A stretch of DNA of 64,000 nt, taken from assembly GCA_964361595.1 (NCBI GenBank), contig CAYIAX010000001.1, positions 98,128 to 162,127 of the forward strand, read 5' to 3'. The stretch's first letter is position 1, and each line of letters begins with the position of its first letter. Source of the DNA: an uncultured Candidatus Saccharibacteria bacterium (GTDB lineage: Bacteria > Patescibacteriota > Minisyncoccia > UBA6257 > 2-01-FULL-56-20). The translations under genes were made by a program, and so were the position numbers. A model generated the notes under the pieces. The model was given only the letters and a program-made list of their open reading frames with translations, made no database searches and had not been told where the DNA came from. Below, piece after piece: positions 5,072 to 57,734 of this stretch.

Positions 5072-6032
5072 GAATCTTGTTACGCCGCGAATCATAAGGC
5101 CCAAGGGTTATTTTAAAGCCTTGGCGCTTGATGTTGCTGCGGTTTTGGCGGCTTTCTTTATGAGTTACGCCTTCAAGCTTTATTTAGCAGAACAAGCATC
5201 TTTGACGTTGGTTATAAGCATTTTGGGTTTATGGGCATTGATTTCGATCTTGCGTACTTTGACGACAAGAACCCTGGGGCGGCGCGCGCTCGTGGCGCTG
5301 CTCCAAACGGCGGCCCTGCTTGTGATCTTTTTAGGAATACCGCTTCAATTCCTGCTCTTGATCGCCGCCGGTGTTTTCATTTTCCTCTTTTGGGGCGAAG
5401 CCAGCGCTTTCACGGAGCTTACGCAAAGCCTGGAGGTAAGATTTTTTCGCACGACCCGCGCGCATGTGAACAGGCTCGTCACCGCCGCGATTATTTTTAC
5501 GCTTTTTATTTATATCGCCACGAACAGCCAAAATCTGTTCGTTTCTGAAAAGAGCTTCACGAAGGTTTACGGCCTTACCGCAGAGGCCGTAAAAAACAGC
5601 TATCCGGATTTGCGGCTTGACTCTACTTTCCGCACGTTTGCCGAAAGCGTTGCAAGGCGGGAGCTTGCAAAACGTCCTGAATATGCTGAGCTAAATACCC
5701 CTATGAAGGAAGCGGCCCTGGCCAAAGCAACGGATGAATCTATGGCGCAGATCCGCGAGACACTCAAGCTTTCCGCAGGAGGGGATGAACAAATGAGTTC
5801 GGTATTCTACAACTTTTTCCGCAGCACGATGGAAGGCTGGCAGAAAACTTTCGGGAAGGCATTTGTCGCGATTTGGGTTATAATCCTTTTCCTGATCCTC
5901 AAGGGTTTTGGCACGCTTTTTTACCTGGGGGTTGGCCTCATCGGTTACTTGCTTTATCAGGGCTTGATCGTTTTAAATGTCATCCATATTATCGGAGAAA
6001 GCCGATCGCGCGAGGTCATAGAATTTACATAA
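5037..6032 (+). CDS. Hypothetical polytopic membrane protein inserted between dnaK and dnaJ
   Basis: 331 aa with several hydrophobic segments. It overlaps the dnaK 3' end by 35 nt, so the true start may be the internal Met near 5160. No recognisable domain. Confidence 0.45.
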
Positions 6033-7212: not shown

Positions 7213-7465
7213 GATTTATTATTTGGTCTTACTCGTACGCCTGCCCGCTTCTGGAGGGAACAGGCTAATAATAGGAATTTTGATTTTTTGGCAAAAATCT
7301 CGTAGAGTACATCACGTTCCCGCCCATAGCTCAATCTGCCGAAAGGCAGATAAACTGGTAGACTTGCCCGCCATAGCTTTAGCGAAAGTAAGGCAACCCT
7401 GCCTGTCGGCAGACAGGTCGCCTTACAAGTAAACTTGCTGTCTAGGACGTTCGTCGAAAATAAAT

Positions 7466-22769: not shown

Positions 22770-24623
22770 TTACAAGAACTCTTCCCTGTAGCACTCCGCG
22801 CAATACACTATCTCCGGGCGTTCGGGCGGGAAAGTTGTTTCAAATTCATTGGGACAAGCCGCATCGCCGTGAAAATGCTTTGAGGCATTTTCATAGGTCT
22901 TGGCGCCATCCTGCGTGCTCGCTGTTTTGCCTTTGCATAAACAATGGCGTTTCCAGATCTGCAGGCCATTGCGCATCGCCCGCCGTTCGAGATGCCTGCA
23001 GCTAGGACAAAGGCGGGGGAGCGCGATATTCATCTGTTTATAAAACGCTAGTTCTTCCGGTGAAATCCGAAAAGCGGTCGAACAGCCGTGGTTGCACCGC
23101 GGCCGCCTTGGTCCTTCGGCGACGGCGGCTCCGCCCTCCTCCTTCGCCGAAGCTTCAACGGTCGAAGCATGCGCGCACCCGATGATCTCTTTAGTGATCG
23201 ACTCCTGAACATCTCGGATATGGTCCGGCAAATCTTCCGGCAGAAGTGTGGTTTTATAATCCCGCGCCGGGGGTTCCTGCCAGCGCAAGCCCTCGGCTTC
23301 AACTTCTTTTCTTGTCTTCGGATACCAGTCAAAGGCAAAAGATTCGTTATAGGCATAAGCGGAAAGTTCGGCGGGAAAGAATTCGCCGTAGCGGTAAACT
23401 CTGCCCTTGGCGTCGCGGTAGGGCATCTCATTCATCTGGGCTTTGATCTTTTTGACCAGCGCAAAATATTCTTCCTTGCTGTACTGCTTGTTAAGGATGC
23501 AATATTGCTTGTTTCTAAGATTAATGCAACCAAAAGCATTAGAACTATTTTCCGACCAATCGCAATACTGTATATTGTTTGAATTGCCACTGCCCGCGGA
23601 AAAAAGACATTTTTGGGATCGCATGGTGTTAGCTGATTCGTAGAGCAATTCCGACAAATCTCCACCTGCTGTGACATCATAACTGTCTTTGAGGTTGAAC
23701 CCTCCGAAAAATAGGTATTTACAGTTCTCTACTCCATTCAAGGCGGAAAAACATACTTGGCAATTTTTGCTGTCGCGGATAATGTCGCCCGAGACGTTTA
23801 CGCTGTTTAAAACGTGCGCATATCGATGCGGAACGGAAGCGTAGAGGTTTTTGAACTTGTCTTTTGCTTCTTCTAGTCGTTTATAGCTGCCTAAATCCCA
23901 ATATTTCATTGCTTCTACATATTCATCTTTCGCAACTCGTTTGTTCCAAATCCAGTATTTTTGCTTGCGGAGACTCGTGCAACCAAAACAATTTGAGCAT
24001 CCTACGCAATCATAAATGAATGACGAGTCTAAGCATTCGGTTGAAAAGTAGCTAAAACTTACGCGATATAGTCGGCTGGAATGCAGAGCTTCATACGCGT
24101 GATCAGAATTGTCGGTTATGTAGGCATCAAAGGAGTTTTTAGATAAGAGGAGGCCATATGAATTTTCTGAATTTTCGGAGAAAAAACACTTGAAGACGAA
24201 ATAGCAGTTTTTGGAGTGATGCGTCGAATTTGAATAGTCGCAATTAATGTTATTGCTACCAATTAAGGCTGGCCTGGGGACGACTTCCATAAGTTTCCTG
24301 TATTGGGCAAAGAACGGCTGATTAAAATCATAATCTCGTCCGTAGGTCATCGGATCCCACCTATCGGATTGCCAGCAGGGGCGGCAATATACGGTAAACG
24401 GACTTCCGGGAGCCTGGACGGTTATAATGGATTTCTTACAGAGATCGCAAGTGCCTTTATAGAGCGTGCGATCCTCGCGCCAGCTCGACCGGCGCCTGTT
24501 CCGGCAGGCGGGGCACCATGTCGGCGGCGGCACGTCGATTTTCTTATAAAAATCAAAGTCGTCCGGTTCTATAACAAAACTTTGTTTACAGCTCTGGCAA
24601 ATTTTTGTTTCTGCGGTACTCAT
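22770..24623 (-). CDS. Cys-rich (~5% Cys) hypothetical protein with matching N- and C-terminal zinc-ribbon-like modules and an internally duplicated core
   Basis: N-terminus CQSCKQSFVIEPDDFDFYKKIDVPPPTWCPACR and C-terminus CNHGCSTAFRISPEELAFYKQMNIALPRLCPSCR. The middle contains repeated C..C/NS-rich segments. Confidence 0.6.
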   Translation of the reverse strand: MSTAETKICQSCKQSFVIEPDDFDFYKKIDVPPPTWCPACRNRRRSSWREDRTLYKGTCDLCKKSIITVQAPGSPFTVYCRPCWQSDRWDPMTYGRDYDFNQPFFAQYRKLMEVVPRPALIGSNNINCDYSNSTHHSKNCYFVFKCFFSENSENSYGLLLSKNSFDAYITDNSDHAYEALHSSRLYRVSFSYFSTECLDSSFIYDCVGCSNCFGCTSLRKQKYWIWNKRVAKDEYVEAMKYWDLGSYKRLEEAKDKFKNLYASVPHRYAHVLNSVNVSGDIIRDSKNCQVCFSALNGVENCKYLFFGGFNLKDSYDVTAGGDLSELLYESANTMRSQKCLFSAGSGNSNNIQYCDWSENSSNAFGCINLRNKQYCILNKQYSKEEYFALVKKIKAQMNEMPYRDAKGRVYRYGEFFPAELSAYAYNESFAFDWYPKTRKEVEAEGLRWQEPPARDYKTTLLPEDLPDHIRDVQESITKEIIGCAHASTVEASAKEEGGAAVAEGPRRPRCNHGCSTAFRISPEELAFYKQMNIALPRLCPSCRHLERRAMRNGLQIWKRHCLCKGKTASTQDGAKTYENASKHFHGDAACPNEFETTFPPERPEIVYCAECYREEFL

Positions 24624-27673: not shown

Positions 27674-30001
27674 ATGACTGCTTTCCCCTCGGTTCTAGTT
27701 ATTTTCGGCGCCACTGGTGATTTAGCGAGGCGCAAGCTCATCCCTGCGCTTTATCATTTGCACAGGAAAAAGCTTTTACCGCCGCTTTTCCAGATCGTGG
27801 CTTTCTCGCGCCGAGAACTTACAACCGAAGCGTTCCAGGAAATTGCGCGCGAAGCGGTCAAAAAAATTCCCGAAAGCACTCCCGCGGAGACAGAATCATT
27901 TTTGCGGCTCTTCGTTTACATCCAAGGATTTTTCGACCGGAAAACCGGCTATAAGCACTTGGCCGAATTCCTGGGATTTAAGGATAACGAGTGGCAAAAA
28001 TGCTCGAATAAGCTTTTTTATCTCGCGGTCCCTCCGACCTATTACAAAAAAGTTTTTGCCCAGCTTGCGGCCTCGCGGCTCACTGAACCTTGTCCGCCGG
28101 AAGAAGGCTGGACGCGCGTCGCGGTGGAAAAGCCCTTTGGCAAAGATTTGAAGACCGCCGAAGACCTGGACAAGATGCTGGGGCGGCTCTTTAAGGAAGA
28201 CCAGATCTACCGAATCGATCATTATTTAGGCAAAGAGACGATCCAAAACATCCTCGCATTCCGATTTTCCAACTCATTTCTCGATCCTGCTTGGAACAAT
28301 AAATCCGTTCAAGGCATCCAGGTGAGATTTTTGGAAAAATTGGGGCTTGAGGGCCGCGGGGAATTCTATGACGGCGTGGGCGCTTTGCGTGACGTCGGTC
28401 AAAACCACCTTCTGCAGATGCTAGCCTTAATTACCATGCGCAATCCGGGCGTGTTTGATGCGAATGCGGTGCGTCATGCCCGCGCAGAAATATTAAAAGC
28501 TTTGCGTCCGCTCACGAAGCGAAACGTGAACGCGCAGATCTTGAAGGGGCAGTATCAAGGATTCCGGGCAGAAAAGAATATCTCGACGAATTCGCGGACC
28601 GAAACTTATTTCCGGATCAAAACTTTCATTGATCTACCCGAATGGTCTGGCGTGCCGATCCTGCTTGAAGGCGGGAAAGCGCAGGATGTGAATGCCGTGG
28701 ACATCAGCGTTGTTTTCAGGCATAAAATGCCCTGTCTCTGTGTAGGCAAAAAACATTCGCAGAATATTTTGCGTTATGAAGTCCAGCCGCAGGAGCGCAT
28801 TTCGACCTCATTTTGGGTCAAGCAGCCTGGAACCGAAATGCAGATCGAGGAAAAGGATTTCGCTTTTGATTACAAACAAGCTTTTGCCGGGGCGAATATT
28901 TTTGATGCTTATGAGCGTTTACTCATCGATGCGTTTGCGGGCAATCAGACTCTTTTTGTCAGCACGGAAGAAATTATGGCAAGCTGGAAGTTCGTCGATT
29001 CCGTGGAAACCGCTTGGAAGAATTCGGAACTCTTGGCCTACAAAACAGGTTCAGCCGAAGCGCGCAAGGCCGTTTTCCCGGAGGCTGAAATCGGCAAGAC
29101 GATCGGCATGGTCGGTTTGGGTAAAATGGGCAAAAATCTCGCTTTGCATTTGCGTGAGCAGGGCTGGCAGGTCACGGGTTATGATCCGGCGGCTAAATTA
29201 CCGGAGATAAAAATGGCCAAAAATTTGAGCGAACTTACGCGTTCGTTGCCGCAACCCCGCGTGATTTGGCTGATGTTGCCGGCTGGCGCTGGTACGGAAG
29301 CAGGTAAGTTTAAAGAGACTCCGACTGACGCGGTTTTAAAAGAACTCATTCAGTTTTTGGCAAAAGGCGATATCGTGATCGACGGCGGCAATTCTTTTTA
29401 TGAAACTACCGTGCGCCGGGCGGCATTATTCAAAAAACACGGGATTAATTTCTTGGATGTCGGAGTTTCGGGCGGTCCGCAGGGCGCGCGCGCAGGCGCA
29501 TCCTTGATGATCGGAGGCGATGCAAAAGCGTTTACTGCAGTCGAAGAGCTCTTTCGCGATCTGGCCGTCCCGGGCGGATATGTTCACTTAGGGAAGTCAG
29601 GAGCGGGCCATTTTACGAAAATGGTGCATAATGGAATTGAGTACGGAATGATGCAGGCGATTGCCGAAGGCTTCGCCATTATGAAGCAATCGCCCTTTGA
29701 GCTTGATCTGCGCAAAGTGGCGGATATTTATAACCACGGCAGCGTGATCGAATCCCGATTGATCGGCTGGCTCGAAAAAGCCTTACGCGAGCACGGAGAG
29801 AATCTAGAAAAGGTTTCCGGCACCGTGGGGCACTTGGGCGAAGGCGAATGGACCGTGAAAACCGCCAAGAAACTCAAGGTTCCTGTATCGGCTATTGAGA
29901 CCGCTTTCAAGTTCCGTATGCAATCCAAGCGTAACCCGAGTTATATCGGCAAAATTCTTTCGGCCTTGCGGAACCAGTTCGGCGGACACAGCGTTAATTA
30001 A
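27674..30001 (+). CDS. zwf-gnd: Fused glucose-6-phosphate 1-dehydrogenase (Zwf, ~470 aa) and short-form 6-phosphogluconate dehydrogenase (Gnd-like, ~300 aa)
   Basis: N-terminus has VIFGATGDLARRKL, RIDHYLGKE and the Zwf C-terminal YKTGSA(E)... pattern. The C-terminus has IGMVGLGKMGKNLA (Rossmann fold), GGNSFY and VHNGIEYGMMQAIAEGF (6PGDH). A single continuous ORF of 775 aa. Confidence 0.85.
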   Translation: MTAFPSVLVIFGATGDLARRKLIPALYHLHRKKLLPPLFQIVAFSRRELTTEAFQEIAREAVKKIPESTPAETESFLRLFVYIQGFFDRKTGYKHLAEFLGFKDNEWQKCSNKLFYLAVPPTYYKKVFAQLAASRLTEPCPPEEGWTRVAVEKPFGKDLKTAEDLDKMLGRLFKEDQIYRIDHYLGKETIQNILAFRFSNSFLDPAWNNKSVQGIQVRFLEKLGLEGRGEFYDGVGALRDVGQNHLLQMLALITMRNPGVFDANAVRHARAEILKALRPLTKRNVNAQILKGQYQGFRAEKNISTNSRTETYFRIKTFIDLPEWSGVPILLEGGKAQDVNAVDISVVFRHKMPCLCVGKKHSQNILRYEVQPQERISTSFWVKQPGTEMQIEEKDFAFDYKQAFAGANIFDAYERLLIDAFAGNQTLFVSTEEIMASWKFVDSVETAWKNSELLAYKTGSAEARKAVFPEAEIGKTIGMVGLGKMGKNLALHLREQGWQVTGYDPAAKLPEIKMAKNLSELTRSLPQPRVIWLMLPAGAGTEAGKFKETPTDAVLKELIQFLAKGDIVIDGGNSFYETTVRRAALFKKHGINFLDVGVSGGPQGARAGASLMIGGDAKAFTAVEELFRDLAVPGGYVHLGKSGAGHFTKMVHNGIEYGMMQAIAEGFAIMKQSPFELDLRKVADIYNHGSVIESRLIGWLEKALREHGENLEKVSGTVGHLGEGEWTVKTAKKLKVPVSAIETAFKFRMQSKRNPSYIGKILSALRNQFGGHSVN

Positions 30002-45962: not shown

Positions 45963-48089
45963 ATGCCAAATCATTTCCAGCTAAAATCGAATTTTAAACC
46001 GGCTGGCGATCAACCGCGAGCGATCGATGCGCTTGTTTCGGGTTTGGAAAAAAATTTGAAACATCAAACTTTGCTTGGCGTAACCGGTTCGGGCAAGACC
46101 TTTACGATCGCGAATGTAATCGCCAAGGTCAACAAACCCGCGCTCGTGATTGCGCATAATAAAACATTGGCGGCCCAGCTCACCAATGAGTTTAAGGAGT
46201 TTTTTCCGCATAATTCGGTCAACTATTTCGTTTCCTATTACGATTATTACCAACCGGAAGCATATTTACCGACCACCGACACTTATATCGGCAAAGAGGC
46301 TTTGATTAACGAGGAAATTGATAAACTGCGCCATGCGGCGACGACCGCGCTCTTAACGCGCCGGGACGTGATCGTGGTCGCTTCAGTCTCTTGCATTTAT
46401 GGTTTGGGCGCGCCGGAGATATATGCGCAAAATATTTTCCATTTCCAAACGGGGGATTTAGTGAAGCGCGAGGAACTTGCCCGCAAACTGATCGAACTTC
46501 AATTTAAGCGAACCAATGCGGATTTGAAGCGGGGGACCTATCGCTTGCGCGGCGACACCTGGGAAATTATGCCGCCCGACCGGGAGGTAATTTACACTTT
46601 TGACCTTAAGGGTGGAGTGATCGAAAAAATCTACGAAATTGATCCCGTGCAGGGCTTCCGGCCCGGCAAAACTCCGACTGTACAGGAAATCTTCATTGCG
46701 CCCGCCAAGCACTTCATCACGCTTGTACCCGAGCGCGAACGGGCCATTAAGGCAATCAAAGCCGAGCTCAAGGAGCGGCTTAAATACTTCGAGGAGCACA
46801 AGAAGTTTCTCGAAGCCGAACGGCTGGAACGGCGCACCAAATTCGACATCGCCATGATCCGCGCCGTTGGCTATTGCCACGGCATCGAAAACTATTCCCG
46901 GCACCTTTCCGGCCGCGGCCAGGGCGAACCGCCCGCCACGCTTTTGGATTATTTTTTTACCCGCCGACTTGGCCACCATAGCTTCAGCGCTGGTGGAAGC
47001 CTTGGCGAAGGCGGGCCTTCGCAGCGCGGAAGCGTGCAGACGAAACGCGATCGTCAGGAAGAGCTGGACTTCCTGACCATAATTGACGAATCGCACGTTA
47101 CTGTGCCGCAGATCTCCGGCATGTTCGCAGGCGATGCTTCGCGCAAGCGTACTTTGATTGAATACGGTTTCCGTTTGCCTTCCGCGGCCGACAACCGTCC
47201 GCTCACCTTCAGAGAATTCGAGGCGAGGGCAGGCCGGACAATTTATACTTCGGCGACGCCAGGGTCTTACGAAAAGAAGGTCAGCAAGCAAACCGTAGAA
47301 CAGATAATCCGCCCCACCGGTTTGGTGGATCCTAAAATCACCGTGCGGCCGGCGCGCGGACAGATTGACGACCTTTTGCCGCGCATTGAAGGACGGGTAA
47401 GGGAGAAAGAGCGGGTGCTTGTAACCACGCTTACAAAGCGCATGGCCGAGGATTTAAGCGCGTATCTCGAGGAGCTCAAGATAAAGGTCACATATCTCCA
47501 CAGCGACGTAAAAACTCTGGATCGGATCAGGATTTTGACTTTATTACGGAAAGGGTCCGCCAGCGGCGGATTCGACGTTTTGGTCGGCGTAAACCTGTTG
47601 CGCGAAGGCTTGGACCTGCCGGAAGTTTCATTAGTCGCGATTCTTGACGCCGATAAGGAGGGGTTCCTGCGGAGCGAAACGTCGCTGATCCAGACCATTG
47701 GCCGGGCGGCCAGGAACGTGGCCGGCGAAGTTTTGATTTACGCCGACCAAATCACAGGCTCGATTGAGCGGGCGCTTAAAGAAACCGAACGGCGCCGTAA
47801 GCTCCAGTTGGAATACAATAAAAAACACGGGATTACGCCCAAAACCATCGTCAAGGCTATTACTGATATTCTGCCGAATGTGGACGAGATCCTGAAACTG
47901 GAGCTAAAACCAGTGCCGATATCAAAAGCCGCCCTCGAGGAGATGATTGCGGCGAAGGACAGGGAGATGAAGGCGGCGGCGAAACGCCTGGATTTCGAAT
48001 TGGCAGCACTTTTACGGGACGAGCTAAAATTGCTTTATAAAAAACAAGCCCAAAAGACAAAACCCAAGGAGCATTCAACTAAAGACTAA
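45963..48089 (+). CDS. uvrB: Excinuclease ABC subunit B
   Basis: 708 aa. Walker A GVTGSGKTFT, helicase motifs, the beta-hairpin, and the C-terminal UvrC-binding coiled coil. Confidence 0.95.
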   Translation: MPNHFQLKSNFKPAGDQPRAIDALVSGLEKNLKHQTLLGVTGSGKTFTIANVIAKVNKPALVIAHNKTLAAQLTNEFKEFFPHNSVNYFVSYYDYYQPEAYLPTTDTYIGKEALINEEIDKLRHAATTALLTRRDVIVVASVSCIYGLGAPEIYAQNIFHFQTGDLVKREELARKLIELQFKRTNADLKRGTYRLRGDTWEIMPPDREVIYTFDLKGGVIEKIYEIDPVQGFRPGKTPTVQEIFIAPAKHFITLVPERERAIKAIKAELKERLKYFEEHKKFLEAERLERRTKFDIAMIRAVGYCHGIENYSRHLSGRGQGEPPATLLDYFFTRRLGHHSFSAGGSLGEGGPSQRGSVQTKRDRQEELDFLTIIDESHVTVPQISGMFAGDASRKRTLIEYGFRLPSAADNRPLTFREFEARAGRTIYTSATPGSYEKKVSKQTVEQIIRPTGLVDPKITVRPARGQIDDLLPRIEGRVREKERVLVTTLTKRMAEDLSAYLEELKIKVTYLHSDVKTLDRIRILTLLRKGSASGGFDVLVGVNLLREGLDLPEVSLVAILDADKEGFLRSETSLIQTIGRAARNVAGEVLIYADQITGSIERALKETERRRKLQLEYNKKHGITPKTIVKAITDILPNVDEILKLELKPVPISKAALEEMIAAKDREMKAAAKRLDFELAALLRDELKLLYKKQAQKTKPKEHSTKD

Positions 48090-48448
48090 ACACTTTATGC
48101 ACCTTTCGTGGTAATTTATCCACCGCTTCTTAACCTTTTTGCGTTGACTTTTTCCGAGGATGTTCAACAATGGAATTAGGTTGGCGCGGCGAATGGATTG
48201 GCACTTCCGATCAAATAATATAAATACCTTTTAGCAGTCCCATCGCGCGGGTTCGAGGACCCCCGGTAAGGCTCAATCGTGGTATCCTGCGGAATCCCAA
48301 CTCCATTACAAGCGCCGGACCTACTTATGGGAAGGTGAGGTTTCCGTAGGAATAGCTACGGTGCTTTGCCTTGTCTGGCTTGTTGCGTGTTATATCGTCA
48401 TAGTCATTCTTATCGTATCGTAATTGTCATTGTATAAGTCTGGGAGAA

Positions 48449-48478
48449 GGCGCCTGCGGGCGTTTTTTTTGGTTTTTT
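48449..48478 (+). terminator. Intrinsic terminator: a short GC hairpin followed by T8. It closes a ~350-nt ORF-free region downstream of uvrB.
   Basis: ggcgcctgcgggcgtttttttt. Confidence 0.45.
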
Positions 48479-48534
48479 GGCCTGTGGATAAACTGGCCTT
48501 GTCTACAGAATACATGGTCGGGTAGAATGTAAAC

Positions 48535-49185
48535 GTGGAAACACCAGTAACTGCAAGGCAAAAAGAGCTTTTGGGGCTTATTTATGACTATCTTAAGGAA
48601 ACTGGATATTCCCCGACGATAAGCGAAATGAGGGAAAGGCTTAAGGTTGCTTCCAATCAATCCATCCTTGATCTTCTTAAAAAACTGGAAAGTGGGCAGC
48701 TGATAAAAAAAACCGAATCTGCCGCGCGGAGTATTTCCATATTGCCTTTGGCATTCCAGCTTTTATCAAGGCCGCCCCTGGTTGAATTTATGGGCGCTAC
48801 GAGCGCCGGTTCTCCGATCGGAAGCATAGAAATAACGGGAGAATGGCAAGTCCTGCCTTCTTTCCAGGGCGAGAAAGTTTCGAAGCTCAAAAACGATGTT
48901 TTTCTTCTGAAAATCCACGGCGATTCGATGATTAACGCCGGAATTGATAATGAAGACATAGTTTTGGTCCAAAAACAGAAAGAGTTTATTTCCGGAGATA
49001 TTGTGCTCGCGCAAATAGGGGATGAGTCAACCATAAAAAGATTTATTTCCGACGACAAGCCCCCGTATGTTTATTTGAAGCCGGAAAATCCGAAATACCA
49101 AAATATTCCCTTTACTGAAGAGATGCGGCTGGAAGGAAAGGTCATCTCGATTTCCAAAAACGGCTACTGGCAGCCGCTAAAATAA
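48535..49185 (+). CDS. lexA: LexA repressor (S24 peptidase)
   Basis: N-terminal winged HTH (LTARQKELL...GYSPTISEM). Catalytic Ser in GDSM and catalytic Lys in STIKRF. Confidence 0.85.
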   Translation: METPVTARQKELLGLIYDYLKETGYSPTISEMRERLKVASNQSILDLLKKLESGQLIKKTESAARSISILPLAFQLLSRPPLVEFMGATSAGSPIGSIEITGEWQVLPSFQGEKVSKLKNDVFLLKIHGDSMINAGIDNEDIVLVQKQKEFISGDIVLAQIGDESTIKRFISDDKPPYVYLKPENPKYQNIPFTEEMRLEGKVISISKNGYWQPLK

Positions 49186-51167
49186 TGCCCACGGCGAAAA
49201 CGAACGAAAGCCGGAAAATAATAGATAAGATTTTTGGAAATCCCGATATAGCTTTCGGACTCAAAGAATTCGAGGGAATAGATTTTAACCAAATTCTCAA
49301 GATCACCGAGAATCAGCCGGGCCGTTTTTACATAAAAGATTTAAAATCCGGCAGCCAGAAATTTGTTTATGATGAAACGAAGAATACCGGCAAGCCGGAA
49401 GAAATTATCCGCCAGCTGTGGCTTTATAAACTAAACACGCATTATAAGTACCCGTTCGAAAGGATCGAAACCGAAAAGAGCATCCGGTTTGGCCGGGAAG
49501 TCCATGCAAAGGCGGCTGATGTTGTTATCTATAAAAAAGACAAAATAACCCCGTATATAATTTTAGAGGTTAAAAATCCCGACGAGAAAAAAAGTATTGA
49601 TCAGCTGAAAACTTACTTAAACTCCGAGGGGTCGGAAATCGGCGTTTGGTCTAACGGCAAGGACAAGGTCATTCTCTATCGCCCCTATCCTAAAGAATTT
49701 GAAGATTCTTTAAGCGATATTCCCCGCGCCGACCAAACCATAGACGACCTTTTTGAAATAAAAAGAAGCTGGGGAGATTTGAATCCGAAATTCGACTTTA
49801 TCGAGATTGTCCGGCACATGGAGGAGCTGGCCCTCGCCGGTTCAGGCGCGAATGTTTTTGAAGAAATATTTAAAATCGTTTACGCCAAACTTTATGACGA
49901 GAAGCTGGCGCGTGAGCGAAGGGAAAATGAAGAAGTGGTTTTCAGAAAATACCGCGATCCGCAGAAAACCTATGATGTTATCAATAACGAGCTTTTCAAA
50001 AACGCCATAAAAGAGTGGCCGGACACTTTCGAGCCGTCGGACAGAATCCGCCTTTCTCCGGATCGATTAAATATCTGCGTGGCCTTTCTTGAGAACATCC
50101 GGCTTTTTGAAATCGGCCAGGGGGAATACGAAATTATTGATAGCGCCTTTGAGTATCTCATAACCGAAGTTTCAAAAGGTAAAAAGGGGCAGTATTTTAC
50201 CCCTCGCCATGTAATTAAGATGTGCGTAAAGATGATGGAACCGAAAGAGGGGGAATATGTGCTCGATCCCGCTTGCGGCTCCGGCGGATTCCTTTTGCAT
50301 TCGATGTATCGCGTTTGGGAGGGCCTTAAGACCGAATCGGCCCAGAAAAATTATGCTTCCAAATATATTTTTGGATTTGATTTCGACGACAATATGCGGA
50401 GAATTTCGCAGGCGTTGATGCTTATAGCCGGTGACGGCAAGCATCACATTTTCAAAAGGGATTCGCTTGACGCGCGCGACTGGCAGGGCGGCGAAAGCGA
50501 AGATGCGCGGGTTGCTCTAAAGCCGCTTCTCGCGAGATTTGATAATCTCTCGGACGATAAGGCCAATCAAAATTCATACCGGCATTTGAATTTTGACATA
50601 ATACTCACCAATCCGCCGTTTGCCGGAGAAAATCCCGAGATCGGGCTTTTACGTCAGTATGAGTTGGCCAGAAAAGAAGGCGGCAAGCTGAAAAATAACG
50701 TCGAGCGGCACATTTTATTCATCGAGCGGGTTCTTGATGCCGTAAAGCCCGGCGGGCGGGTTGCAATCGTCCTGCCGCAAGGCGTTTTGAACAACACGAA
50801 TATGAAATATATCCGGGATTACCTTTTCGAGAAAGCCCGGGTTTTGGCGGTGGTCGGATTGCATGGAAACACATTTAAGCCCCACACGGGAACGAAAACA
50901 AGCGTTTTGTTTCTGCAGAAATGGCTTGCCCGCCGAAGTCTCGACGAAGGCGGGGGCGAAGATCAAAAGCCGCTCAAGGACTACCCGATTTTTATGGCGG
51001 TTTCCAAGAAAGGCGGCAAGGACAATTCGGGCGATTACATTTATAAAAAAGACGCGAACAGAAATTATTTCCATAACGACAAAGGCCGGAAAGTCCTTGA
51101 TCACGACTTGGACGAAATAGCAGATGAATTCAGGAAATTTTCCGGAAAAGAAAAACTCGAATTTTAG
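49185..51167 (+). CDS. hsdM: Type I restriction-modification M subunit (N6-adenine MTase) with an N-terminal HsdR_N-like PD-(D/E)xK domain
   Basis: The N-terminal ~190 aa has an ADVVIYKK...PYIILEVKNPDE nuclease-like core (HSDR_N_2-type). MTase motif I is LDPACGSGGFLL and motif IV is TNPPFAG. The ATG overlaps the lexA stop (TAATG). Confidence 0.85.
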   Translation: MPTAKTNESRKIIDKIFGNPDIAFGLKEFEGIDFNQILKITENQPGRFYIKDLKSGSQKFVYDETKNTGKPEEIIRQLWLYKLNTHYKYPFERIETEKSIRFGREVHAKAADVVIYKKDKITPYIILEVKNPDEKKSIDQLKTYLNSEGSEIGVWSNGKDKVILYRPYPKEFEDSLSDIPRADQTIDDLFEIKRSWGDLNPKFDFIEIVRHMEELALAGSGANVFEEIFKIVYAKLYDEKLARERRENEEVVFRKYRDPQKTYDVINNELFKNAIKEWPDTFEPSDRIRLSPDRLNICVAFLENIRLFEIGQGEYEIIDSAFEYLITEVSKGKKGQYFTPRHVIKMCVKMMEPKEGEYVLDPACGSGGFLLHSMYRVWEGLKTESAQKNYASKYIFGFDFDDNMRRISQALMLIAGDGKHHIFKRDSLDARDWQGGESEDARVALKPLLARFDNLSDDKANQNSYRHLNFDIILTNPPFAGENPEIGLLRQYELARKEGGKLKNNVERHILFIERVLDAVKPGGRVAIVLPQGVLNNTNMKYIRDYLFEKARVLAVVGLHGNTFKPHTGTKTSVLFLQKWLARRSLDEGGGEDQKPLKDYPIFMAVSKKGGKDNSGDYIYKKDANRNYFHNDKGRKVLDHDLDEIADEFRKFSGKEKLEF

Positions 51168-51669
51168 AAATAAGCCTAGAATTGATTTCGAGAAGTTCAA
51201 GAGGGCTAAATTAGACGCTGAAGAATTTTATAAATCTATCGGAGAAATTTATTGCCCTTATTTAAAAGAAAAAATTTCATTTAATGCTAAAGGATTAGAT
51301 CATATAAAATTTGGGGGCTGGAACAAAACAAGACCCCTAAGAGATCAATATATTAGATTGCGACTTCTGAAATTAGCCCCTCAAATAATAAGAGAGTCAC
51401 ATACTTTACAGGAATTTTTCGAAACAACGCGCCTTGAGCGGCGTAGAATAAACGCAAAATGGCAGATGAGCATAGAAAAAACTACTTATTATGGTTTCGT
51501 AGCAATAATCAGAGATTGCAGAATAAAAATAATTATTAAATCAATAGAAGGTGGAAGTAAATTTTTTTGGAGTATTATTCCTTTTTGGAAAAACAGAAGA
51601 TATAAAGTCGATGAAAATACTGTAAATAACAAAAAAATTCTCCATGAAGGAGATTTGGAATTGCAGTAA
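51124..51669 (+). CDS. Hypothetical protein A, embedded between hsdM and hsdS
   Basis: 181 aa, basic. The start overlaps the hsdM 3' end. No recognisable domain. AT-rich. Confidence 0.4.
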   Translation: MNSGNFPEKKNSNFRNKPRIDFEKFKRAKLDAEEFYKSIGEIYCPYLKEKISFNAKGLDHIKFGGWNKTRPLRDQYIRLRLLKLAPQIIRESHTLQEFFETTRLERRRINAKWQMSIEKTTYYGFVAIIRDCRIKIIIKSIEGGSKFFWSIIPFWKNRRYKVDENTVNNKKILHEGDLELQ

Positions 51670-51817
51670 TTCAAGCGGTGTTTGTCTGCGGTTTAAAGAT
51701 TGTAACTGCGGGAGAACCAAAGTCCTCACAAACACCATTGGTAGTATACACCAAAACGGTCAAAAAATCAACTGTGGATAAATTAAAGAAAATATAGTCG
51801 AAAAAACAACCAAAAAT

Positions 51818-52282
51818 ATGAAAATCGAACTTACAAAGGAACAATATAAAAAATTGCTCATTATGAGCGAAATAACAAACAGCATTTTCGGCCTTTTAGG
51901 CGATCATCTGCCAAATACGGATTATAAAAAACGCTCGAACGAAATGGAGCGATTTGGAAAATATCTTTTGGGGAAAGCCGGTGATTTCGGTTGCAAGGAA
52001 TTTACGGAAAAATTCGAAGGGAAGGATGTTTTTAATGAGAAAACACATCATCGGCTTATCATGCCGATATTGGAAGATTACGAAGAGTTTATAATTTTCG
52101 ATGGATTGGCTAATAAATTAGCCTGGCGCGATTTTCGCCGCGATCATTCGGAAGCGGAAATGCGGGAAATGGGAAAAAAGAACGGCGGCTATTTCGGAGT
52201 CGCGCTTTATAATTACGAGAAAAAATACTGGGATGAGTTTAAGAAGCATGATTACGAAAGATTGGAGATAAAAGAAAAATAA
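51818..52282 (+). CDS. Hypothetical protein B, embedded between hsdM and hsdS
   Basis: 154 aa, charged (K/E-rich), no recognisable domain. Confidence 0.45.
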   Translation: MKIELTKEQYKKLLIMSEITNSIFGLLGDHLPNTDYKKRSNEMERFGKYLLGKAGDFGCKEFTEKFEGKDVFNEKTHHRLIMPILEDYEEFIIFDGLANKLAWRDFRRDHSEAEMREMGKKNGGYFGVALYNYEKKYWDEFKKHDYERLEIKEK

Positions 52283-52290
52283 AATTAATT

Positions 52291-52641
52291 ATGTCAAATA
52301 ATATTTTTCCAGAATTGGACGGTTGGGACGATATTAACTCAAGCGGGGGGACTATTGGCACCGGAATAAATAAAGCGATTCATAGATTGGTTATTTCTAT
52401 TGCCAATTTAAGGTCTAGTGTTTCTTCGCAACTTACGTACGTTAAAGGGAAGATAGAAAGCTTGAATCAATCTTTCGAACAACTTAACGAAAATATTCAA
52501 AAAGCAGATCAATCATCTACGAAATTAGCAAGAGCGCTTAACAAATTAACTTTCTGGGCTGTAGTTATTGCGGCTCTTGGGCTCTTAAATTCGTTAGGTC
52601 AGTTTTTATACCAAAATAAATTATGGCCGTTTTCTCAATAA
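52291..52641 (+). CDS. Hypothetical small protein C with a coiled-coil segment and a C-terminal TM helix, embedded between hsdM and hsdS
   Basis: 116 aa. LTFWAVVIAALGLLNSLGQFLY is a TM helix. Its 3' end overlaps the hsdS start. Confidence 0.4.
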   Translation: MSNNIFPELDGWDDINSSGGTIGTGINKAIHRLVISIANLRSSVSSQLTYVKGKIESLNQSFEQLNENIQKADQSSTKLARALNKLTFWAVVIAALGLLNSLGQFLYQNKLWPFSQ

Positions 52642-53987
52642 TTAAAAAAAGCGAATTGGAAGGATCCTTGCGGCTGGACGCGGAATATTATAAGCCGGAG
52701 TACCTGGTTACATTGGAAAAGATAAAAAGCTTCACTTCCGGATTTAAAAAGTTGCCTTATTTCTTATCCAGAGTAGTTGTTACGGGAAGTACGCCAAAGA
52801 AAAGAAGTTGTAGAAACGATGGCACGGATATTAAATTTATTAAGACAGATACCTTGCGAGAAGGACAAATTATTTTTGAAGAAGCAGATTTTTTACCCCT
52901 ACAAGAAAGTCGAAAAAATAGCGAGCCAAAAAACGGAGATATTCTCGTAACTATAATTGGAGCAACTCACGATATAGTTGGGCGGGTTGCAAGGGTATTT
53001 TCCGATGATCCCAAAATAAATATTAACCAAAATATCGCTTTATTAAGGCCGAATCAATTAAGTTTTTCTAGTTATATTTCTGTTTTGCTTCAAACAAAAT
53101 ATGGGCGGGGTCAATTATGGCAACAAAGCAGACAAACGGAGCAAGTCAACTTGAATTGTCGTGAAATAGAAAATATTTTAGTGCCGCTACCTAAAGATAA
53201 TTTTATCGCAGATATAGATAATCTCGTTATAGAATCACATGATTTAATTAGGCAGTCTAAAAATTTATACTCCCAGGCCGAAAATTTGCTTTTGGAAGAA
53301 TTGGGACTGAAAGATTTTCAGGCCGAGAGTAAATTGTATTCAATAGTCAACCTTTCCGAACTGAAATCCGCCAACCGCATGGACGCGGAATATTTCCAAT
53401 CGCATTATGATGGCGTGCTAAATTTAAAAATCGATAAGAAAAGATTATCGGAAATTTCAGATAGAGTAACCGAAAAAATTAAGCTAAATCTAAATTTGGA
53501 ATACAAATATACAGAAATTGGCGACATAGATATTGGGAGCGGAGAAGCTTCGTTTAATTTAAAACAAGGGAAAGATCTGCCAGCTAACGCTAAAATCGGA
53601 ATTTCTGGCGGAGAATTGATAATCTCCAAGGTCAGGCCGACTAGGGGCGCAATCGCAATTGTTCCGGAGGATTGGAAAGATAACCATGTCGTAAGCGGAG
53701 CGTTTTCCGTAATAAAAGCAAGTTCTCCTTTGCGGGAATATATGCAAGTAGTTTTGCGGTCTATAGTTGGTAAGTTGCAAATGGAGAAACCGACAACCGG
53801 AAGTTCGTATCCGACAATTGATGATTCCGACGTGGAAAATCTTTTAATCCCGATTTTGCCTAAAGCGACCCAGCAAAAAATCGCCGACCTGGTTAGAAAA
53901 TCCCACGAAGCGCGGAAAAAATCAAAAGAACTGCTTGAAGAAGCAAAACGGAAAGTTGAGGAAATGATTGAGAATTCCAATAACTAA
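52623..53987 (+). CDS. hsdS: Type I restriction-modification specificity subunit (HsdS) with two target-recognition domains
   Basis: Two repeated conserved regions (LRLDAEYYKPEY and RMDAEYFQSHY) and conserved central and distal helices (LIPLPP...QQKIADLV). Confidence 0.8.
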   Translation: MAVFSIIKKSELEGSLRLDAEYYKPEYLVTLEKIKSFTSGFKKLPYFLSRVVVTGSTPKKRSCRNDGTDIKFIKTDTLREGQIIFEEADFLPLQESRKNSEPKNGDILVTIIGATHDIVGRVARVFSDDPKININQNIALLRPNQLSFSSYISVLLQTKYGRGQLWQQSRQTEQVNLNCREIENILVPLPKDNFIADIDNLVIESHDLIRQSKNLYSQAENLLLEELGLKDFQAESKLYSIVNLSELKSANRMDAEYFQSHYDGVLNLKIDKKRLSEISDRVTEKIKLNLNLEYKYTEIGDIDIGSGEASFNLKQGKDLPANAKIGISGGELIISKVRPTRGAIAIVPEDWKDNHVVSGAFSVIKASSPLREYMQVVLRSIVGKLQMEKPTTGSSYPTIDDSDVENLLIPILPKATQQKIADLVRKSHEARKKSKELLEEAKRKVEEMIENSNN

Positions 53988-54027
53988 ATCCGGTTTTGAC
54001 TCAAAATTTGCGCGCTGCTATTATTAG

Positions 54028-54055
54028 GCGGAATTTGTTTAAACCCCATATTCGC
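54028..54055. promoter_or_regulatory. Perfect 28-bp palindrome ATTCGCTCATTCGCGCGAATGAGCGAAT between hsdS and the downstream nuclease gene. An extended -10 element (TGTTAAAAT) follows.
   Basis: Exact inverted repeat. The promoter-like TGtTAAAAT is at ~54098-54107 and the ATG is at 54118. Confidence 0.4.
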
Positions 54056-54117
54056 TCATTCGCGCGAATGAGCGAATGAATGATTTTCATATCGAAAAAA
54101 TTTGTTAAAATGTTTAA

Positions 54118-54660
54118 ATGGTAAAACCAGCACAGAGAGAATCTTACGCGGAAAGCATGCTGAAGGGGCGCATGGCCGAGACGCTCGTCGAGGAGCTGCT
54201 GCGGGCCTCGGGGAATGAAGTCTACCGTTTCGGCTACGAAGCGGTTTTGCAAAATCTCACACAAATCCAGGATCGCTTTGACCGGCTGAACAAGGCAAGC
54301 GAGCGGATCCGGATTTTTCCCGATTTCATAGTTTTAGACCGCAAAGGCGGCCCGGCCTTTGTGGAAGTTAAATTTCGTTGGGATTCCCGGCTTGACCAGG
54401 AGGGGGATATAAAGCGTTTGGAGCGTTTGCATGCCGATTGGGATGCAAAGCTCGTTATCGTAAATTGTTTCCAAAAACCTTATTTCCGCATTGCCGATCC
54501 GCCCTACCGCGACGAGAAACGGGGATTGTTGCTGCGGCCGCTTTTAGCCGAGGCCAATTGGAAAATCAAGCGCGAGCTCTACGAGGACGCGGAGCGCTTG
54601 GTAGAAAAGTATTTGAGCCCGACACTAATATCCTTAAGGCATAAGGCGTTAAATTTATAA
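54118..54660 (+). CDS. Small PD-(D/E)xK nuclease-fold protein (Hjc/Mrr-like core)
   Basis: GRMAETLVEELLRASG...PDFIVLD...AFVEVKFR has the E...D...E.K arrangement of restriction-endonuclease-like folds. 180 aa, with no helicase/ATPase domain. Confidence 0.5.
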   Translation: MVKPAQRESYAESMLKGRMAETLVEELLRASGNEVYRFGYEAVLQNLTQIQDRFDRLNKASERIRIFPDFIVLDRKGGPAFVEVKFRWDSRLDQEGDIKRLERLHADWDAKLVIVNCFQKPYFRIADPPYRDEKRGLLLRPLLAEANWKIKRELYEDAERLVEKYLSPTLISLRHKALNL

Positions 54661-54682: not shown

Positions 54683-54710
54683 TTGACAGATGGCGGAGTT
54701 GGTCTAAAAT
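54683..54710 (+). promoter_or_regulatory. Canonical sigma70-like promoter (TTGACA, a 16-nt spacer, TAAAAT) that opens an ORF-free ~200-nt region
   Basis: TTGACA at 54683-54688 and TAAAAT at 54705-54710. Confidence 0.5.
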
Positions 54711-54716
54711 ATTGAC

Positions 54717-54914
54717 GGGGAACATGACCGGCTACTAGCAGCCACACAGGCCAAATTAGAGAAGCAAACGCTTCTCTTTTAAGGAAGATAATGAACTTTG
54801 GTGCGCGCGCCATTGTCTAACTAGCAGAGAATTGTCCGGTAGCCTCTCTAGGCCTTCCTCCCTACATTATCCATCCAGGCTCGAGTGATTTTGCTCGAGC
54901 CGTTTTCTTTTTTC
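54717..54914 (+). ncRNA. Candidate ~200-nt ncRNA of unassigned family, bounded by a promoter and a strong intrinsic terminator
   Basis: No ORF of 60 aa or more. Internal hairpin GAGAAGC-AAAC-GCTTCTC. Closing helix GGCTAC...GTAGCC. Terminator GGCTCGAG-tgattttg-CTCGAGCC plus TTTTCTTTTTT at 54878-54914. Confidence 0.4.
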
Positions 54915-55016
54915 ACTGAATAGGCTATACTTACCTCGCGAGTGACCCACCCTGGTTCCCAACCGGTGGGAAATTAAGTTTTAAATTCGAAGCACTAAGC
55001 ACGAAATTCGAAATTT

Positions 55017-57734
55017 ATGCAGAACAAAATAGTTATCAAAGGGGCGAGGGAACACAACCTCAAGAACATCAACCTGGAGCTGCCGCGGGATAAAATGATT
55101 GTCTTTACCGGTCTTTCCGGTTCGGGCAAATCCAGCTTGGCGTTCGACACGATTTTTGCCGAAGGCCAGCGCCGCTACATCGAATCCTTATCCGCATACG
55201 CGCGGCAGTTTTTGGGCCGCTTGGACAAGCCGGATGTGGACGAAATCGAGGGGCTTTCGCCGGCAATTTCCATTGACCAAAAAAGCCATTCCTCGAATCC
55301 GCGCTCAACCGTGGCCACGATCACGGAAATTTACGATTACCTCCGTGTCCTTTTTGCCCGTTTGGGCAAACCCTACTGCCCCGAATGCGGCAAAGAAATC
55401 AAAAGCATGACCAACGAGGAAATCGTGGACGCGGTTATTGAAATCTCCAAGCAAAATGCTGCCGAGAAAAACCTAGTCATTCTCGCGCCCGCCGTGCGCG
55501 GTCGCAAAGGGGAGTATTACCAGATGCTTTACGACTTTTTAAACGCCGGCTTCAGGGAAGTGCGCGTGGATGGTAAGTTTTATCCCTTGCGCGAGCGGAT
55601 TGAACTTTCCCGTTACAAGCAGCACACGATTGAGCTTGTGATTGATCGCATCCCGCACGGGTTGGATTTTAGGCACAAAGATAACCGTCTGCGTTTGGCC
55701 GAAGCCATCGAAACTGCTTTGAAATACGGCAACGATGTGGTTACGATCCATATGATGGGTGATCATGCCGCCCCCAAGGGGGCGCCCGCTCCGACTCCCC
55801 GCTTCGCTCTCGCGAAGACGAGGCGAGGGAGACGAGGCGAGAGCCTCGCCCCGCAGCAAGCAGGGCGGGAAGTTTCTTTGTCGGCCAAATTCACTTGTCC
55901 GCAGGACGGATTTTCATTTCCTGAAATTGAGCCGCGGCTGTTCTCGTTCAATAGCCCTTATGGCGCATGTCCCGCCTGCCACGGTTTGGGCACAGAGGAA
56001 GTCTGGTCGGAAAAGATTTGTCCGGTTTGCCAAGGCAAGCGGTTGAAGCCGGAAGCCTTGAATGTTCTGATTGACGGAAAAAATATTGTAAGCGTAACGG
56101 CTTTTTCGATCGCCGCAGCCTTCGAATTTTTCGGCAAACTGCAGATAAAAAACGATATGCGCTTCCGCGAAGTGGCGGAAGTCCCGCTACGCGAAATCAA
56201 GAACCGGCTCAAATTCATGATTGACGTGGGCCTGGATTATTTAACGCTCGAAAGAAAAGCCGGAACGCTTTCCGGCGGTGAATCCCAGCGCATTCGCTTG
56301 GCTTCACAAATTGGCTCTCGTTTGGTCGGTACGCTCTATATTTTGGACGAGCCCACTATTGGCCTGCACCAGCGGGACAATGAAAAACTTATAAATACGC
56401 TGCATGAACTGCGTGATTTGGGCAACACGATTATTGTGGTTGAGCATGACGAAGAGACCATCCGTTCCTCGGATTACCTGGTGGATATCGGCCCTGGTGC
56501 AGGCGTACATGGCGGCAGGGTCATTGTGGCCGGGGAGATAAAGGAGTTATTAGCGACAAGCGACAAGCGACCCTCCTCCGCTAAAGCTTCCACCGGCGCC
56601 AAAGCTATGGCGGACAAGTCGGCGGGCAAGCAAGATAATGCAGCATTCAATGAATCACTGACGCTTGATTTTCTCAAGGGAAAGCGAGAAATTCCGGTCC
56701 CATCCGAACGCCGCAAAGTCGGCAAAAACCAGGCTTATTTGAAGATTAAAGGCGCGCGGGCCAACAATTTGAAAAACATTGATGTGGAAATTCCGTTGGG
56801 CAAACTGACCGCTGTTACCGGCGTGTCGGGTTCCGGCAAAAGCTCACTGGTTTACGATGTGCTTTATAAAACTCTGGCAAATAAATTTAACGGCGCCGCT
56901 TATAAAGCAGGCCAGCATGCCTCTATGCTCGGCACGGAATATATTAATCGCGTCATCAATATCGACCAATCTCCGATTGGCCGGACGCCGCGTTCGAACC
57001 CAGCTACCTATGTCGGCGCCTGGACGTTTATCCGCGAGTTATTCGCGGCCTCCGAAGATGCTCGCGTTCGCGGCTACAAGCCTGGCCGGTTCAGCTTTAA
57101 CGTGCCGGGCGGCCGCTGCGAGAATTGCGAAGGCCACGGCACAATCGCCATCGAAATGCATTTCCTGCCGACGGTTTATGTAACCTGCGAAATCTGCAAA
57201 GGCAAACGCTTTGATCGGGAAACGCTTGAAGTGGAATATAAAGAAAAAAATATTTATGAAATTTTGCGCATGACCGTGGAGGAAGCCGTAAAATTTTTTG
57301 ATGAAATTCCCTGGCTTTATGATCGCTTGAAAATTTTGGAGGAAGTCGGGTTGGGTTATGTGGAGCTGGGACAGTCGGCCACGACTTTGTCCGGCGGCGA
57401 GGCGCAGCGGATCAAGCTCTCCGCCGAGCTTGGCAAGCGCGATACCCGCCGCACGCTTTATCTTTTGGACGAACCGACTACGGGGCTGCATTTCGGCGAC
57501 GTGGAAAATCTGCTTAAGGTTTTGGATCGGCTGGTCGATCGCGGCAATACAATCGTTGTGATCGAGCATAATTTAGATGTCATCAAAAATGCGGATTGGG
57601 TAATCGATCTTGGCCCCGAAGGCGGGGATAAGGGCGGAAAAATTGTGGGAGCGGGAACACCGGAGGACATCGCCAAGCGCGCAGGCAGCTTTACGGGCGA
57701 ATATCTGAAGAAAGTGCTTCGCTCGCATAAATAA
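55017..57734 (+). CDS. uvrA: Excinuclease ABC subunit A
   Basis: 905 aa. Two ABC ATPase modules ([10 protein letters not shown]; [10 protein letters not shown]), signature LSGGE.QR repeated twice, zinc modules (CP.C...C..C), and two low-complexity insertions. Confidence 0.95.

Follow-up and report, generated by a model that had tools for sequence, protein, structure and literature searches.

A candidate LexA-headed restriction-modification cassette with a cargo slot in Patescibacteria

Introduction

A stretch of 64,000 nucleotides from an uncultured Candidatus Saccharibacteria bacterium (assembly GCA_964361595.1, contig CAYIAX010000001.1, positions 98,128 to 162,127), here called the window, carries between the repair genes uvrB and uvrA a locus that resembles a Type I restriction-modification (R-M) system from which HsdR is absent. 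A gene for a methyltransferase and a gene for a specificity (S) subunit are separated by three small genes termed o181, o154 and o116, and a gene encoding a 180 amino acid (aa) protein with PD-(D/E)xK nuclease residues follows S. The locus therefore raises the question of what cuts the DNA in this system, and of what the three small genes represent. A preliminary description regarded it as a Type I island lacking hsdR, in which the three genes, with or without the 180-aa nuclease, form an effector or abortive infection (Abi) module. The contig originates from the 0.1-µm filter fraction of a Hainich groundwater metagenome, and the relatives of the locus are all from the Patescibacteria or Candidate Phyla Radiation (CPR). 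These organisms are largely without CRISPR and are thought to depend on restriction-modification.

The answer proposed here is that the methyltransferase is fused to a nuclease (the protein is termed RM below), that lexA is the first gene of the unit, and that variable cargo genes occupy a slot between RM and S. This architecture is considered likely to be correct, a judgement that does not extend to the function of the cargo.

The RM and S subunits

The genes from lexA to S are arranged as follows:

48535–49185, plus strand: lexA, located with the rest of the cassette between uvrB and uvrA
49185–51167, plus strand: RM subunit (previously called hsdM), 660 aa, with Pfam domains HSDR_N_2 and N6_Mtase
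51124–51669, plus strand: o181, a cargo gene encoding a stand-alone LPD3-like domain protein of 181 aa, basic, with an isoelectric point of 9.9
51818–52282, plus strand: o154, a cargo gene encoding a 154-aa protein of an all-helical, RM-associated family
52291–52641, plus strand: o116, a cargo gene encoding a 116-aa protein with a coiled coil and a C-terminal transmembrane (TM) anchor
52623–53987, plus strand: S subunit, 454 aa, with two target-recognition domains (TRDs) and Pfam Methylase_S in two stretches

The RM sequence displays the HSDR_N_2 domain at residues 71–180 and the N6_Mtase domain at residues 316–579, and the two domains recognized earlier by inspection are thus confirmed by Pfam. 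The methyltransferase is of the gamma class, N6-adenine type, with the motifs DPACGSGGFL at positions 361–370 and NPPF at 476–479. The N-terminal region shows the PD-(D/E)xK nuclease motifs E97, D112, E128-x-K130 and Q140xxxY144. The closest relative in the PDB is RM.BsaXI (E-value = 4.4e-33), and the alignment covers the nuclease block EtEK...DV...IEVK. In BsaXI, as solved by cryo-EM, the catalytic residues are E73, D90, E105 and K107, which are conserved in Type IIB enzymes (PMC11997821). These align with E97, D112, E128 and K130 of RM, and the same four residues together with the sequence QLKxY are invariant in 14 relatives that are 55–85% identical. RM appears to carry an intact nuclease domain of its own and would not require an HsdR.

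An HsdR-type helicase is not present in the window, as had been noted before; this is based on a Pfam analysis of the ten largest other open reading frames and on tblastn searches with two CPR HsdR proteins. The sole helicase-type open reading frame among the large ones in the window is UvrB. The tblastn searches with the same two proteins were also negative in 15 sister loci with flanks of up to 10 kb. The absence of HsdR is explained if the cutting domain sits in the methylase chain, as predicted. Hence the designation of a Type I system lacking hsdR can be replaced by that of a nuclease-methyltransferase fusion, closest to RM.BsaXI and with a conserved tetrad, from which nothing appears to be missing.

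The S sequence shows the two recognition repeats that had been described, here as the two Methylase_S stretches. Its best PDB matches are Type I S subunits (E-value = 5.9e-14), with S.BsaXI at 1.3e-4.

The core has many of the properties of the Type IIB RM+S enzymes, e.g. BcgI and BsaXI (PDB 8w0p). In these, too, a single chain carries, in the same order, an N-terminal PD-(D/E)xK nuclease, a helical connector and then the gamma-class N6A methyltransferase; the S protein with two TRDs is separate, there is no ATPase or translocase, and the E/D/E-x-K tetrad aligns with the one found here. Proteins of the RM+S class form (RM)2S complexes (PMC11997821). There are differences, however. RM.BsaXI is 916 aa in length and has knob and paddle elements, whereas the present RM has a chain length of 660 aa. 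In addition, RM and S are split by the cargo slot and lexA is at the head, an arrangement of which no report was seen for Type IIB systems. Two-sided cleavage is a property of the known Type IIB enzymes and may or may not be shared by the RM described here. With respect to Type IIB features, the RM tetrad and an S gene are present and there is no motor gene nearby. With respect to Type I features, an HsdS with two TRDs is present, HsdR was not found, and HSDR_N_2, which is a nuclease fold, replaces HsdM_N. By these features the core would be of the Type IIB RM+S kind.

A minor feature of the RM gene is an insertion of about ten residues, LARRSLDEGGG, encoded at positions 50922–50978 and absent from most homologues. 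The RM of a sister locus (L054) has another GC-rich insertion at the same site.

Conservation of the cassette

When GTDB genomes were searched with RM as the query, eight loci were obtained; their labels are Saccharibacteria, Portnoybacteria, Minisyncoccales/Minisyncoccia, Moraniibacteriota and unclassified Patescibacteria. lexA is directly upstream of RM and on the same strand in all eight, and S is found downstream in all six that reach far enough. Seven further distinct loci from metagenomes, including a Ryanbacteria genome, display the same gene order. The adjacency of lexA and RM is found in every relative with upstream sequence (15 of 15). The flanking genes vary: they are uvrB and uvrA in the window, and LeuRS and TsaD in Ryanbacteria.

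The pairwise identities of LexA and RM are strongly correlated (Spearman 0.81, p = 3e-16), but those of RM and S only at 0.31. The mean pairwise identity is 64% for RM and 55% for LexA, and S is hypervariable at 35%. lexA is part of the cassette unit. In the window the lexA stop codon and the RM start codon share the sequence TAATG, as previously reported. Read-through from lexA into the R-M genes, first put forward as something that could occur, appears more than plausible in view of the adjacency in all 15 relatives.

LexA, its promoter and the DnaA box

Judged by its sequence features the lexA product is a bona fide LexA. It scores 139.7 bits with TIGR00498 (equivalog cut-off 110.95), displays the Pfam domains LexA_DNA_bind and Peptidase_S24, and has the cleavage site A91-G92 and the residues S131 and K168. 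Three elements are found upstream of the gene:

48483–48491, minus strand: perfect DnaA-box consensus TTATCCACA, just upstream of the lexA promoter
48499–48528, plus strand: predicted promoter of lexA and the operon, TTGTCT, an 18-nt spacer and TAGAAT, from a consensus scan, with a layout that recurs in sister loci
48505–48522, plus strand: palindrome ACAGAATACATGGTCGGG resembling a LexA operator, between the -35 and -10 sequences

The operator consensus of the sister loci is CCCGACTAwwTAGTCGGG, and the layout upstream of the sister lexA genes is TTGAC, the palindrome and TATAAT, e.g. TTGACCCGACTAAATAGTCGGGTTATTATG. With a position weight matrix (PWM) made from the sister sites only, the window site being left out, positions 48505–48522 score 16.1 bits. 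This is the sole strong operator in the 64 kb, the runner-up having 9.1 bits, and no further promoter-proximal operator was found in the window or in the approximately 1 Mb of fetched loci. A weak half-operator-like sequence, AAAGAAAATATAGTCGAA, is present at 51785–51802, immediately upstream of o154, where the operon has its sole intergenic gap of any size. With 8.4 bits it ranks fourth in the window, and it may be due to chance.

The exact DnaA 9-mer is found upstream of lexA in 9 of the 15 loci, and in 11 if one mismatch is allowed; the background is 0.008 per 150 bp. It lies about 55 nt, and up to about 100 nt, from the lexA start. Equivalents of the window box are present in L004, L010, L012–L015, L041 and L054, where the flanking genes differ. 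This suggests that DnaA, or the status of replication, feeds into the lexA-RM operon.

A LexA with a different association to R-M is encoded on a Jorgensenbacteria contig (L099, positions 2797–4323, minus strand). In this 508-aa protein LexA_DNA_bind, Peptidase_S24 and N6_N4_Mtase are fused, and its gene adjoins an RE_TaqI endonuclease gene and has Fic, AbiEii, AHJR-like and ParE neighbours. It looks like a Type II R-M pair whose methylase is fused to a self-cleaving LexA, and is a sign that the link of LexA with R-M is broader in the CPR. No paper on such a link in the CPR was found in the searchable literature, which did not cover a 2017 study by Sanchez-Osuna, Barbe and Erill (Environ Microbiol 19:3465) that is said to deal with the SOS network of Patescibacteria; an earlier description of the operator or the operon is possible.

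The cargo slot

In the sister cassettes the gap between RM and S is 0.5–1.75 kb in length and contains lineage-specific genes:

L010: a DUF4145 protein
L011: a 175-aa unknown protein
L012: an RnlA-DBD-like protein and a 301-aa protein
L013: NYN and DUF6602
L014: a 204-aa open reading frame whose N-terminus is similar to the L013 NYN protein (no domain scan)
L015: DUF3800 and a 264-aa unknown protein
L016: an AAA_15/AAA_21 and DUF4435 ATPase (RloA/OLD-like)
L004, L037 and L054: o181 alone
L021, L033 and L034: o181, then a small open reading frame whose N-terminal stretch is hydrophobic
L041: o181 and, after it, two further open reading frames (150 aa and 226 aa)

Defence islands, and the gaps between hsdM and hsdS of classical systems, are known to contain several of these domains. 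The small open reading frames of the window sit where sister loci hold known defence-associated genes.

In the window, 44 nt are shared by o181 and the RM gene and 19 nt by o116 and S, and a spacer of 8 nt lies between o154 and o116. The guanine-cytosine (GC) content is 0.31 for o181, 0.36 for o116 and 0.38 for both o154 and S. It is intermediate in lexA (0.44) and RM (0.45), and the values for the 180-aa gene (0.51, with 0.61 at third codon positions) and for uvrA/uvrB (0.52) are similar to each other. The block had been described as AT-rich throughout. This holds for the cargo and S, to which the AT-richness is confined, but not for lexA and RM, nor for the 180-aa gene with its host-like composition. 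No transposase, repeats or integrase flank the three cargo genes.

The preliminary description found no recognizable domain in the three small proteins, and our searches agree: neither these nor the 180-aa protein show anything above threshold in Pfam, PADLOC, NCBIfam or PHROG, the LPD3 similarity of o181 being sub-threshold, and there is no match to a known Abi or toxin-antitoxin family. The family profiles of o181, o154 and the 180-aa protein have no match to PDB sequences. The o181 and o154 families were not detected in the viral contigs of IMG/VR, a scan of which o116 was not part.

o181 has 249 homologues at E ≤ 0.01 and is present in 466 confirmed metagenome stretches. The family has a chain length of approximately 160 aa and is 45–70% identical, with 21 invariant residues in a sample of 25 sequences. 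The window copy scores 16.5 bits with LPD3 (PF18798), for which the gathering score is 27, and the model covers only about residues 25–96. LPD3 matches are found in 13 of the 25 family members (best E-value = 5e-7). LPD3 is a domain of phage polyvalent proteins whose function is unknown (PMC5512222). RM is directly upstream of o181 in 8 of the 48 distinct loci with enough upstream sequence.

o154 has 115 homologues. Its AlphaFold2 model is all-helical (pLDDT 94.5) and has no fold match in the PDB, and Foldseek against the viral structures of BFVD gave nothing at E ≤ 0.001. In all nine other contexts examined o154 is next to R-M genes, i.e. Type I, Type ISP or DpnI genes. Those outside L068 are:

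L100: KilA-N and DpnI
L101: hsdM-RhuM...hsdS
L102: hsdM
L103: HsdR...Fic
L104: HsdR
L105: a Type ISP-like enzyme
L025: another M/S pair, with o181 about 4 kb away
L019: RM-o181-o154like-S (hhalign probability 98.3%)

The order of o181 before o154 is seen again in L068 and L019, and o154 is found without an adjoining o181 in seven contexts (L025 and L100–L105).

o116 has at least 44 cluster representatives at E ≤ 1e-3. An N-terminal motif, PELDxW, is conserved, and the protein has a coiled coil and, at its C-terminus, a TM helix; the hydrophobic end that had been noticed is a 19-mer at residues 88–106. There are weak XhlA- or holin-like matches. One o116 homologue is located in a cluster that also encodes an Eco57I-like methyltransferase and other small proteins of the membrane or coiled-coil type. 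This cluster (L106, positions 1715–5950, also present in L107–L109) consists of small genes on the same strand, in the order of a 79-aa helix-turn-helix (HTH)-like protein, the Eco57I-like methyltransferase, unknown proteins of 181 aa and 83 aa, a 210-aa TM/coiled-coil protein, the o116-like protein and a 116-aa TM/coiled-coil protein. It may represent a mobile element, or an R-M or defence cluster of an uncharacterised kind.

The three families are 45–70% identical and have invariant polar residues. We conclude that the genes are genuine and under purifying selection, and that each is in the defence-type slot as a passenger of its own, the three being neither one module nor core subunits. No locus among those examined, other than the window, has all three.

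The 180-aa neighbour

Two features follow S:

54050–54077, plus strand: perfect 28-bp palindrome between S and the 180-aa gene
54118–54660, plus strand: 180-aa putative PD-(D/E)xK protein with E21, D69, E83 and K85, judged to be outside the cassette

The palindrome had been described before and is confirmed here, and the residues fit the PD-(D/E)xK designation given earlier to the protein. The palindrome consists of a 13-bp stem followed by AATGATTTTC and scores as an intrinsic terminator. It is most simply the terminator of the operon, although it could also be an operator for the 180-aa gene.

Among 27 sequences of the family of the 180-aa protein there is little or no variation at E21, P68-D69 and E83-V-K85, and the mean column identity is 63%. 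The similarity to VRR_NUC is weak (E-value = 0.065) and there is no PDB sequence match. From these residues a PD-(D/E)xK nuclease is plausible. The family has more than 600 homologues in the CPR and its contexts vary: in one genome the neighbours are VKOR and HTH genes, and another genome has it in a mixed defence island. The gene is absent from all sister cassettes.

The 180-aa protein was considered as the missing R subunit. This was rejected on account of its host-like GC content, its wide distribution and its absence from the sister cassettes, and its earlier inclusion in the module is not retained. The gene is best treated as an unrelated resident neighbour, outside the cassette.

The sole additional match is in L103 (1245–1712), where a Type I HsdR gene is directly followed by a distant relative (E-value = 4e-20, 24% identity). 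The family may therefore have divergent members that are R-M associated, unlike the main family.

Proposed mechanism and comparison with known systems

The region from lexA through hsdS (48499–54077) would form one operon. RM and S are expected to assemble as (RM)2S in the manner of BcgI and BsaXI, and by the same analogy the complex would methylate a bipartite host site and cut unmodified DNA with the fused nuclease. LexA would bind the palindrome between the -35 and -10 sequences and repress its own promoter. Since the stop of lexA and the start of RM overlap, and the plus strand shows no convincing terminator from the lexA promoter to the post-S palindrome, RM, the cargo and S would be repressed as well. 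Self-cleavage of LexA stimulated by RecA would then raise the expression of all of these, and the DnaA box may add an input from replication status. We infer a single LexA-repressed, damage-inducible transcript from lexA to S.

The cargo genes, each from its own CPR-wide family, would be co-transcribed and remain outside the core enzyme. By likeness to the other occupants of the slot they may be accessory or second-line conflict genes, which is said with low confidence. With similarly low confidence, o116 could be an effector that acts on the membrane, and o181 and o154 its sensor or regulator partners.

A broader proposal is that LexA of Patescibacteria was recruited as a dedicated controller of R-M, with the cargo as second-line effectors induced by the SOS response. 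It is put forward because of the vertically co-inherited lexA-RM-S operon, which has an operator of its own and a DnaA box, and because of the LexA-methyltransferase fusion beside a TaqI-like endonuclease, and it is regarded as tentative.

R-M systems with a C protein similarly have a repressor gene directly before the R-M genes, co-transcribed with them, and an operator in the repressor's own promoter. The C protein, however, is small and of the Xre type, whereas a full LexA with HTH and self-cleaving S24 domains is found here, so that the predicted signal is DNA damage and not the timing of establishment. Type I systems with passengers between hsdM and hsdS also have defence or toxin genes that are embedded and co-transcribed, e.g. 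PrrC, RloA/B/C, RhuM, Fic and Abi genes, and the ATPase of L016 is alike. Unlike these systems the locus has no HsdR, has HSDR_N_2 in place of HsdM_N, and carries passengers of uncharacterised families.

The MADS system also resembles the locus. In MADS a regulator comes first and two genes are located between the methylase and S, and MAD6, MAD7 and MAD8 are required both by the authors' detection model and for defence (bioRxiv 10.1101/2023.03.30.534895). The order of regulator, methylase, two small genes and S is similar to that found here; however, MADS is about 22 kb in length and the locus about 5.5 kb. The best NCBIfam matches are MAD2 for RM (285.5 bits, cut-off 720) and MAD5 for S (120 bits, cut-off 400), and the PADLOC models mad2 and mad5 also match. 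The small genes have no match to the mad models. Identity with MADS was rejected on the basis of the sub-cut-off scores and the lack of MAD6-8 after S, where the 180-aa gene and uvrA come next. That the locus is a reduced or degenerate MADS, which kept mad1-like, mad2, mad3/4-like and mad5 genes and lost MAD6-8, would account for the gene order and the MAD2 and MAD5 matches; with scores so far under the cut-offs and with small genes foreign to every mad model, it is considered very improbable.

Alternative explanations

Several observations weigh against the proposed architecture and mechanism. The closest curated family of the core is MADS MAD2/MAD5, and the core might use partners encoded elsewhere. 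A REBASE-derived PADLOC model (PDLC03034) classifies RM as a Type I methyltransferase with 532 bits, and S is nearer to Type I S proteins than to the Type IIB S.BsaXI. No operator is found before uvrA, uvrB or dinB in the window, which is odd for a LexA that governs a global SOS response. The cargo genes are without an assignable fold or domain, and their role is thus argued from guilt by association; o181, moreover, is solo and in unrelated contexts in 40 of the 48 distinct loci. Cleavage, methylation and LexA binding are all predicted activities, and the evidence on HsdR, lexA and the operator is drawn from the window and the fetched loci rather than from whole genomes.

The original proposal, in which an M/S pair without R shelters or serves a single three-gene Abi or effector module, with or without the 180-aa nuclease, has some attractive points. 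The genes are tightly packed, with the 8-nt spacer and the 19-nt overlap with S, the o181-o154 order is repeated in two other loci, and o154 is always near RM genes. The product of o116 is a membrane protein with weak holin-like similarity, and small TM proteins follow o181 in L021, L033 and L034. Against this, the trio is seen in no other locus, each of o181 and o154 is mostly found without the other, RM-seeded sister cassettes have wholly other cargo, the M subunit is not R-less and the 180-aa gene is unlinked. The module is therefore judged unlikely. Alternatively, the three small genes could be selfish or neutral hitch-hikers, e.g. mobile solo genes or elements of the addiction type, that land in a permissive slot and have no role in defence. 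The occurrence of o181 in many unrelated intergenic contexts, e.g. between polysaccharide and ribosomal-protein genes in L007, the AT-rich composition of the cargo relative to the host and the rapid turnover of the slot are all in keeping with this. But the families show strong purifying conservation, o154 is tied to several RM types in every one of its nine contexts, there are no flanking mobile-element genes or repeats, and o181 and o154 do not occur in IMG/VR. Hitch-hiking is possible, although doubtful.

The core itself could be a housekeeping device for SOS- or replication-linked methylation or repair of the cell's own DNA. A mean RM identity that exceeds that of LexA is unusual conservation for a restriction enzyme, and strict co-inheritance with lexA, the DnaA box at the promoter and the neighbours uvrB, dinB and uvrA in the window would fit such a role. 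However, the low identity of S and its poor correlation with RM are typical of phage-driven switching of specificity, genes of defence islands gather in the gap, the flanks differ between genomes, and homology is solely to R-M enzymes. A housekeeping function is accordingly thought to be quite improbable, and the LexA-headed R-M cassette with a cargo slot is preferred.

Significance

Three aspects appear to be new: that a LexA with operator and DnaA box is conserved at the head, that the cassette has a cargo slot, and that the three small genes belong to uncharacterised families. Standard annotation tools would call the locus an incomplete Type I system, where a self-sufficient nuclease-methylase is probably present. 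With respect to regulation, restriction would be tied to the SOS repressor and possibly to DnaA, which is opposite to classical restriction alleviation; no report of a coupling between restriction and the SOS repressor was found in the searchable literature. If LexA is indeed a controller of R-M, restriction and methylation would be tuned to DNA damage and to the state of replication, and the slot would hold at least two undescribed defence-associated families (o154 and o116) in addition to the stand-alone LPD3-like o181. The slot is a defined hotspot in which new defence genes of unculturable organisms may be found. The compact pair of a 660-aa RM and S might also yield new programmable enzymes of a Type IIB-like kind.

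Other features of the window

The region between the 180-aa gene and uvrA (54683–54917) displays a near-consensus promoter, TTGACA, a 16-nt spacer and TAAAAT, which agrees with the consensus at 11 of 12 positions. A strong terminator (54878–54901) follows about 170 nt downstream. This is probably a small RNA gene. Its sole Rfam match, suhB/mmgR, is sub-threshold at 30.7 bits (gathering score 41). Between uvrB and the lexA promoter, about 380 bp (48090–48470) are non-coding and have a terminator at the end (48443–48470). This stretch has no match in Rfam and may be an unrecognised structured RNA.

A 617-aa open reading frame at 22770–24623, on the minus strand, has no Pfam match at E ≤ 1e-5. 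Positions 27674–30001 comprise one open reading frame of 775 aa with glucose-6-phosphate dehydrogenase (G6PD_N and G6PD_C) and 6-phosphogluconate dehydrogenase domains, an apparent fusion of two enzymes of the pentose-phosphate pathway. A GC-rich repeat of 41 bp, 88% identical and in inverted orientation, is present in frame in both uvrB (46960–47000) and uvrA (56586–56626), and is listed also at 7361–7384. It adds odd peptide stretches to the UvrB and UvrA proteins.

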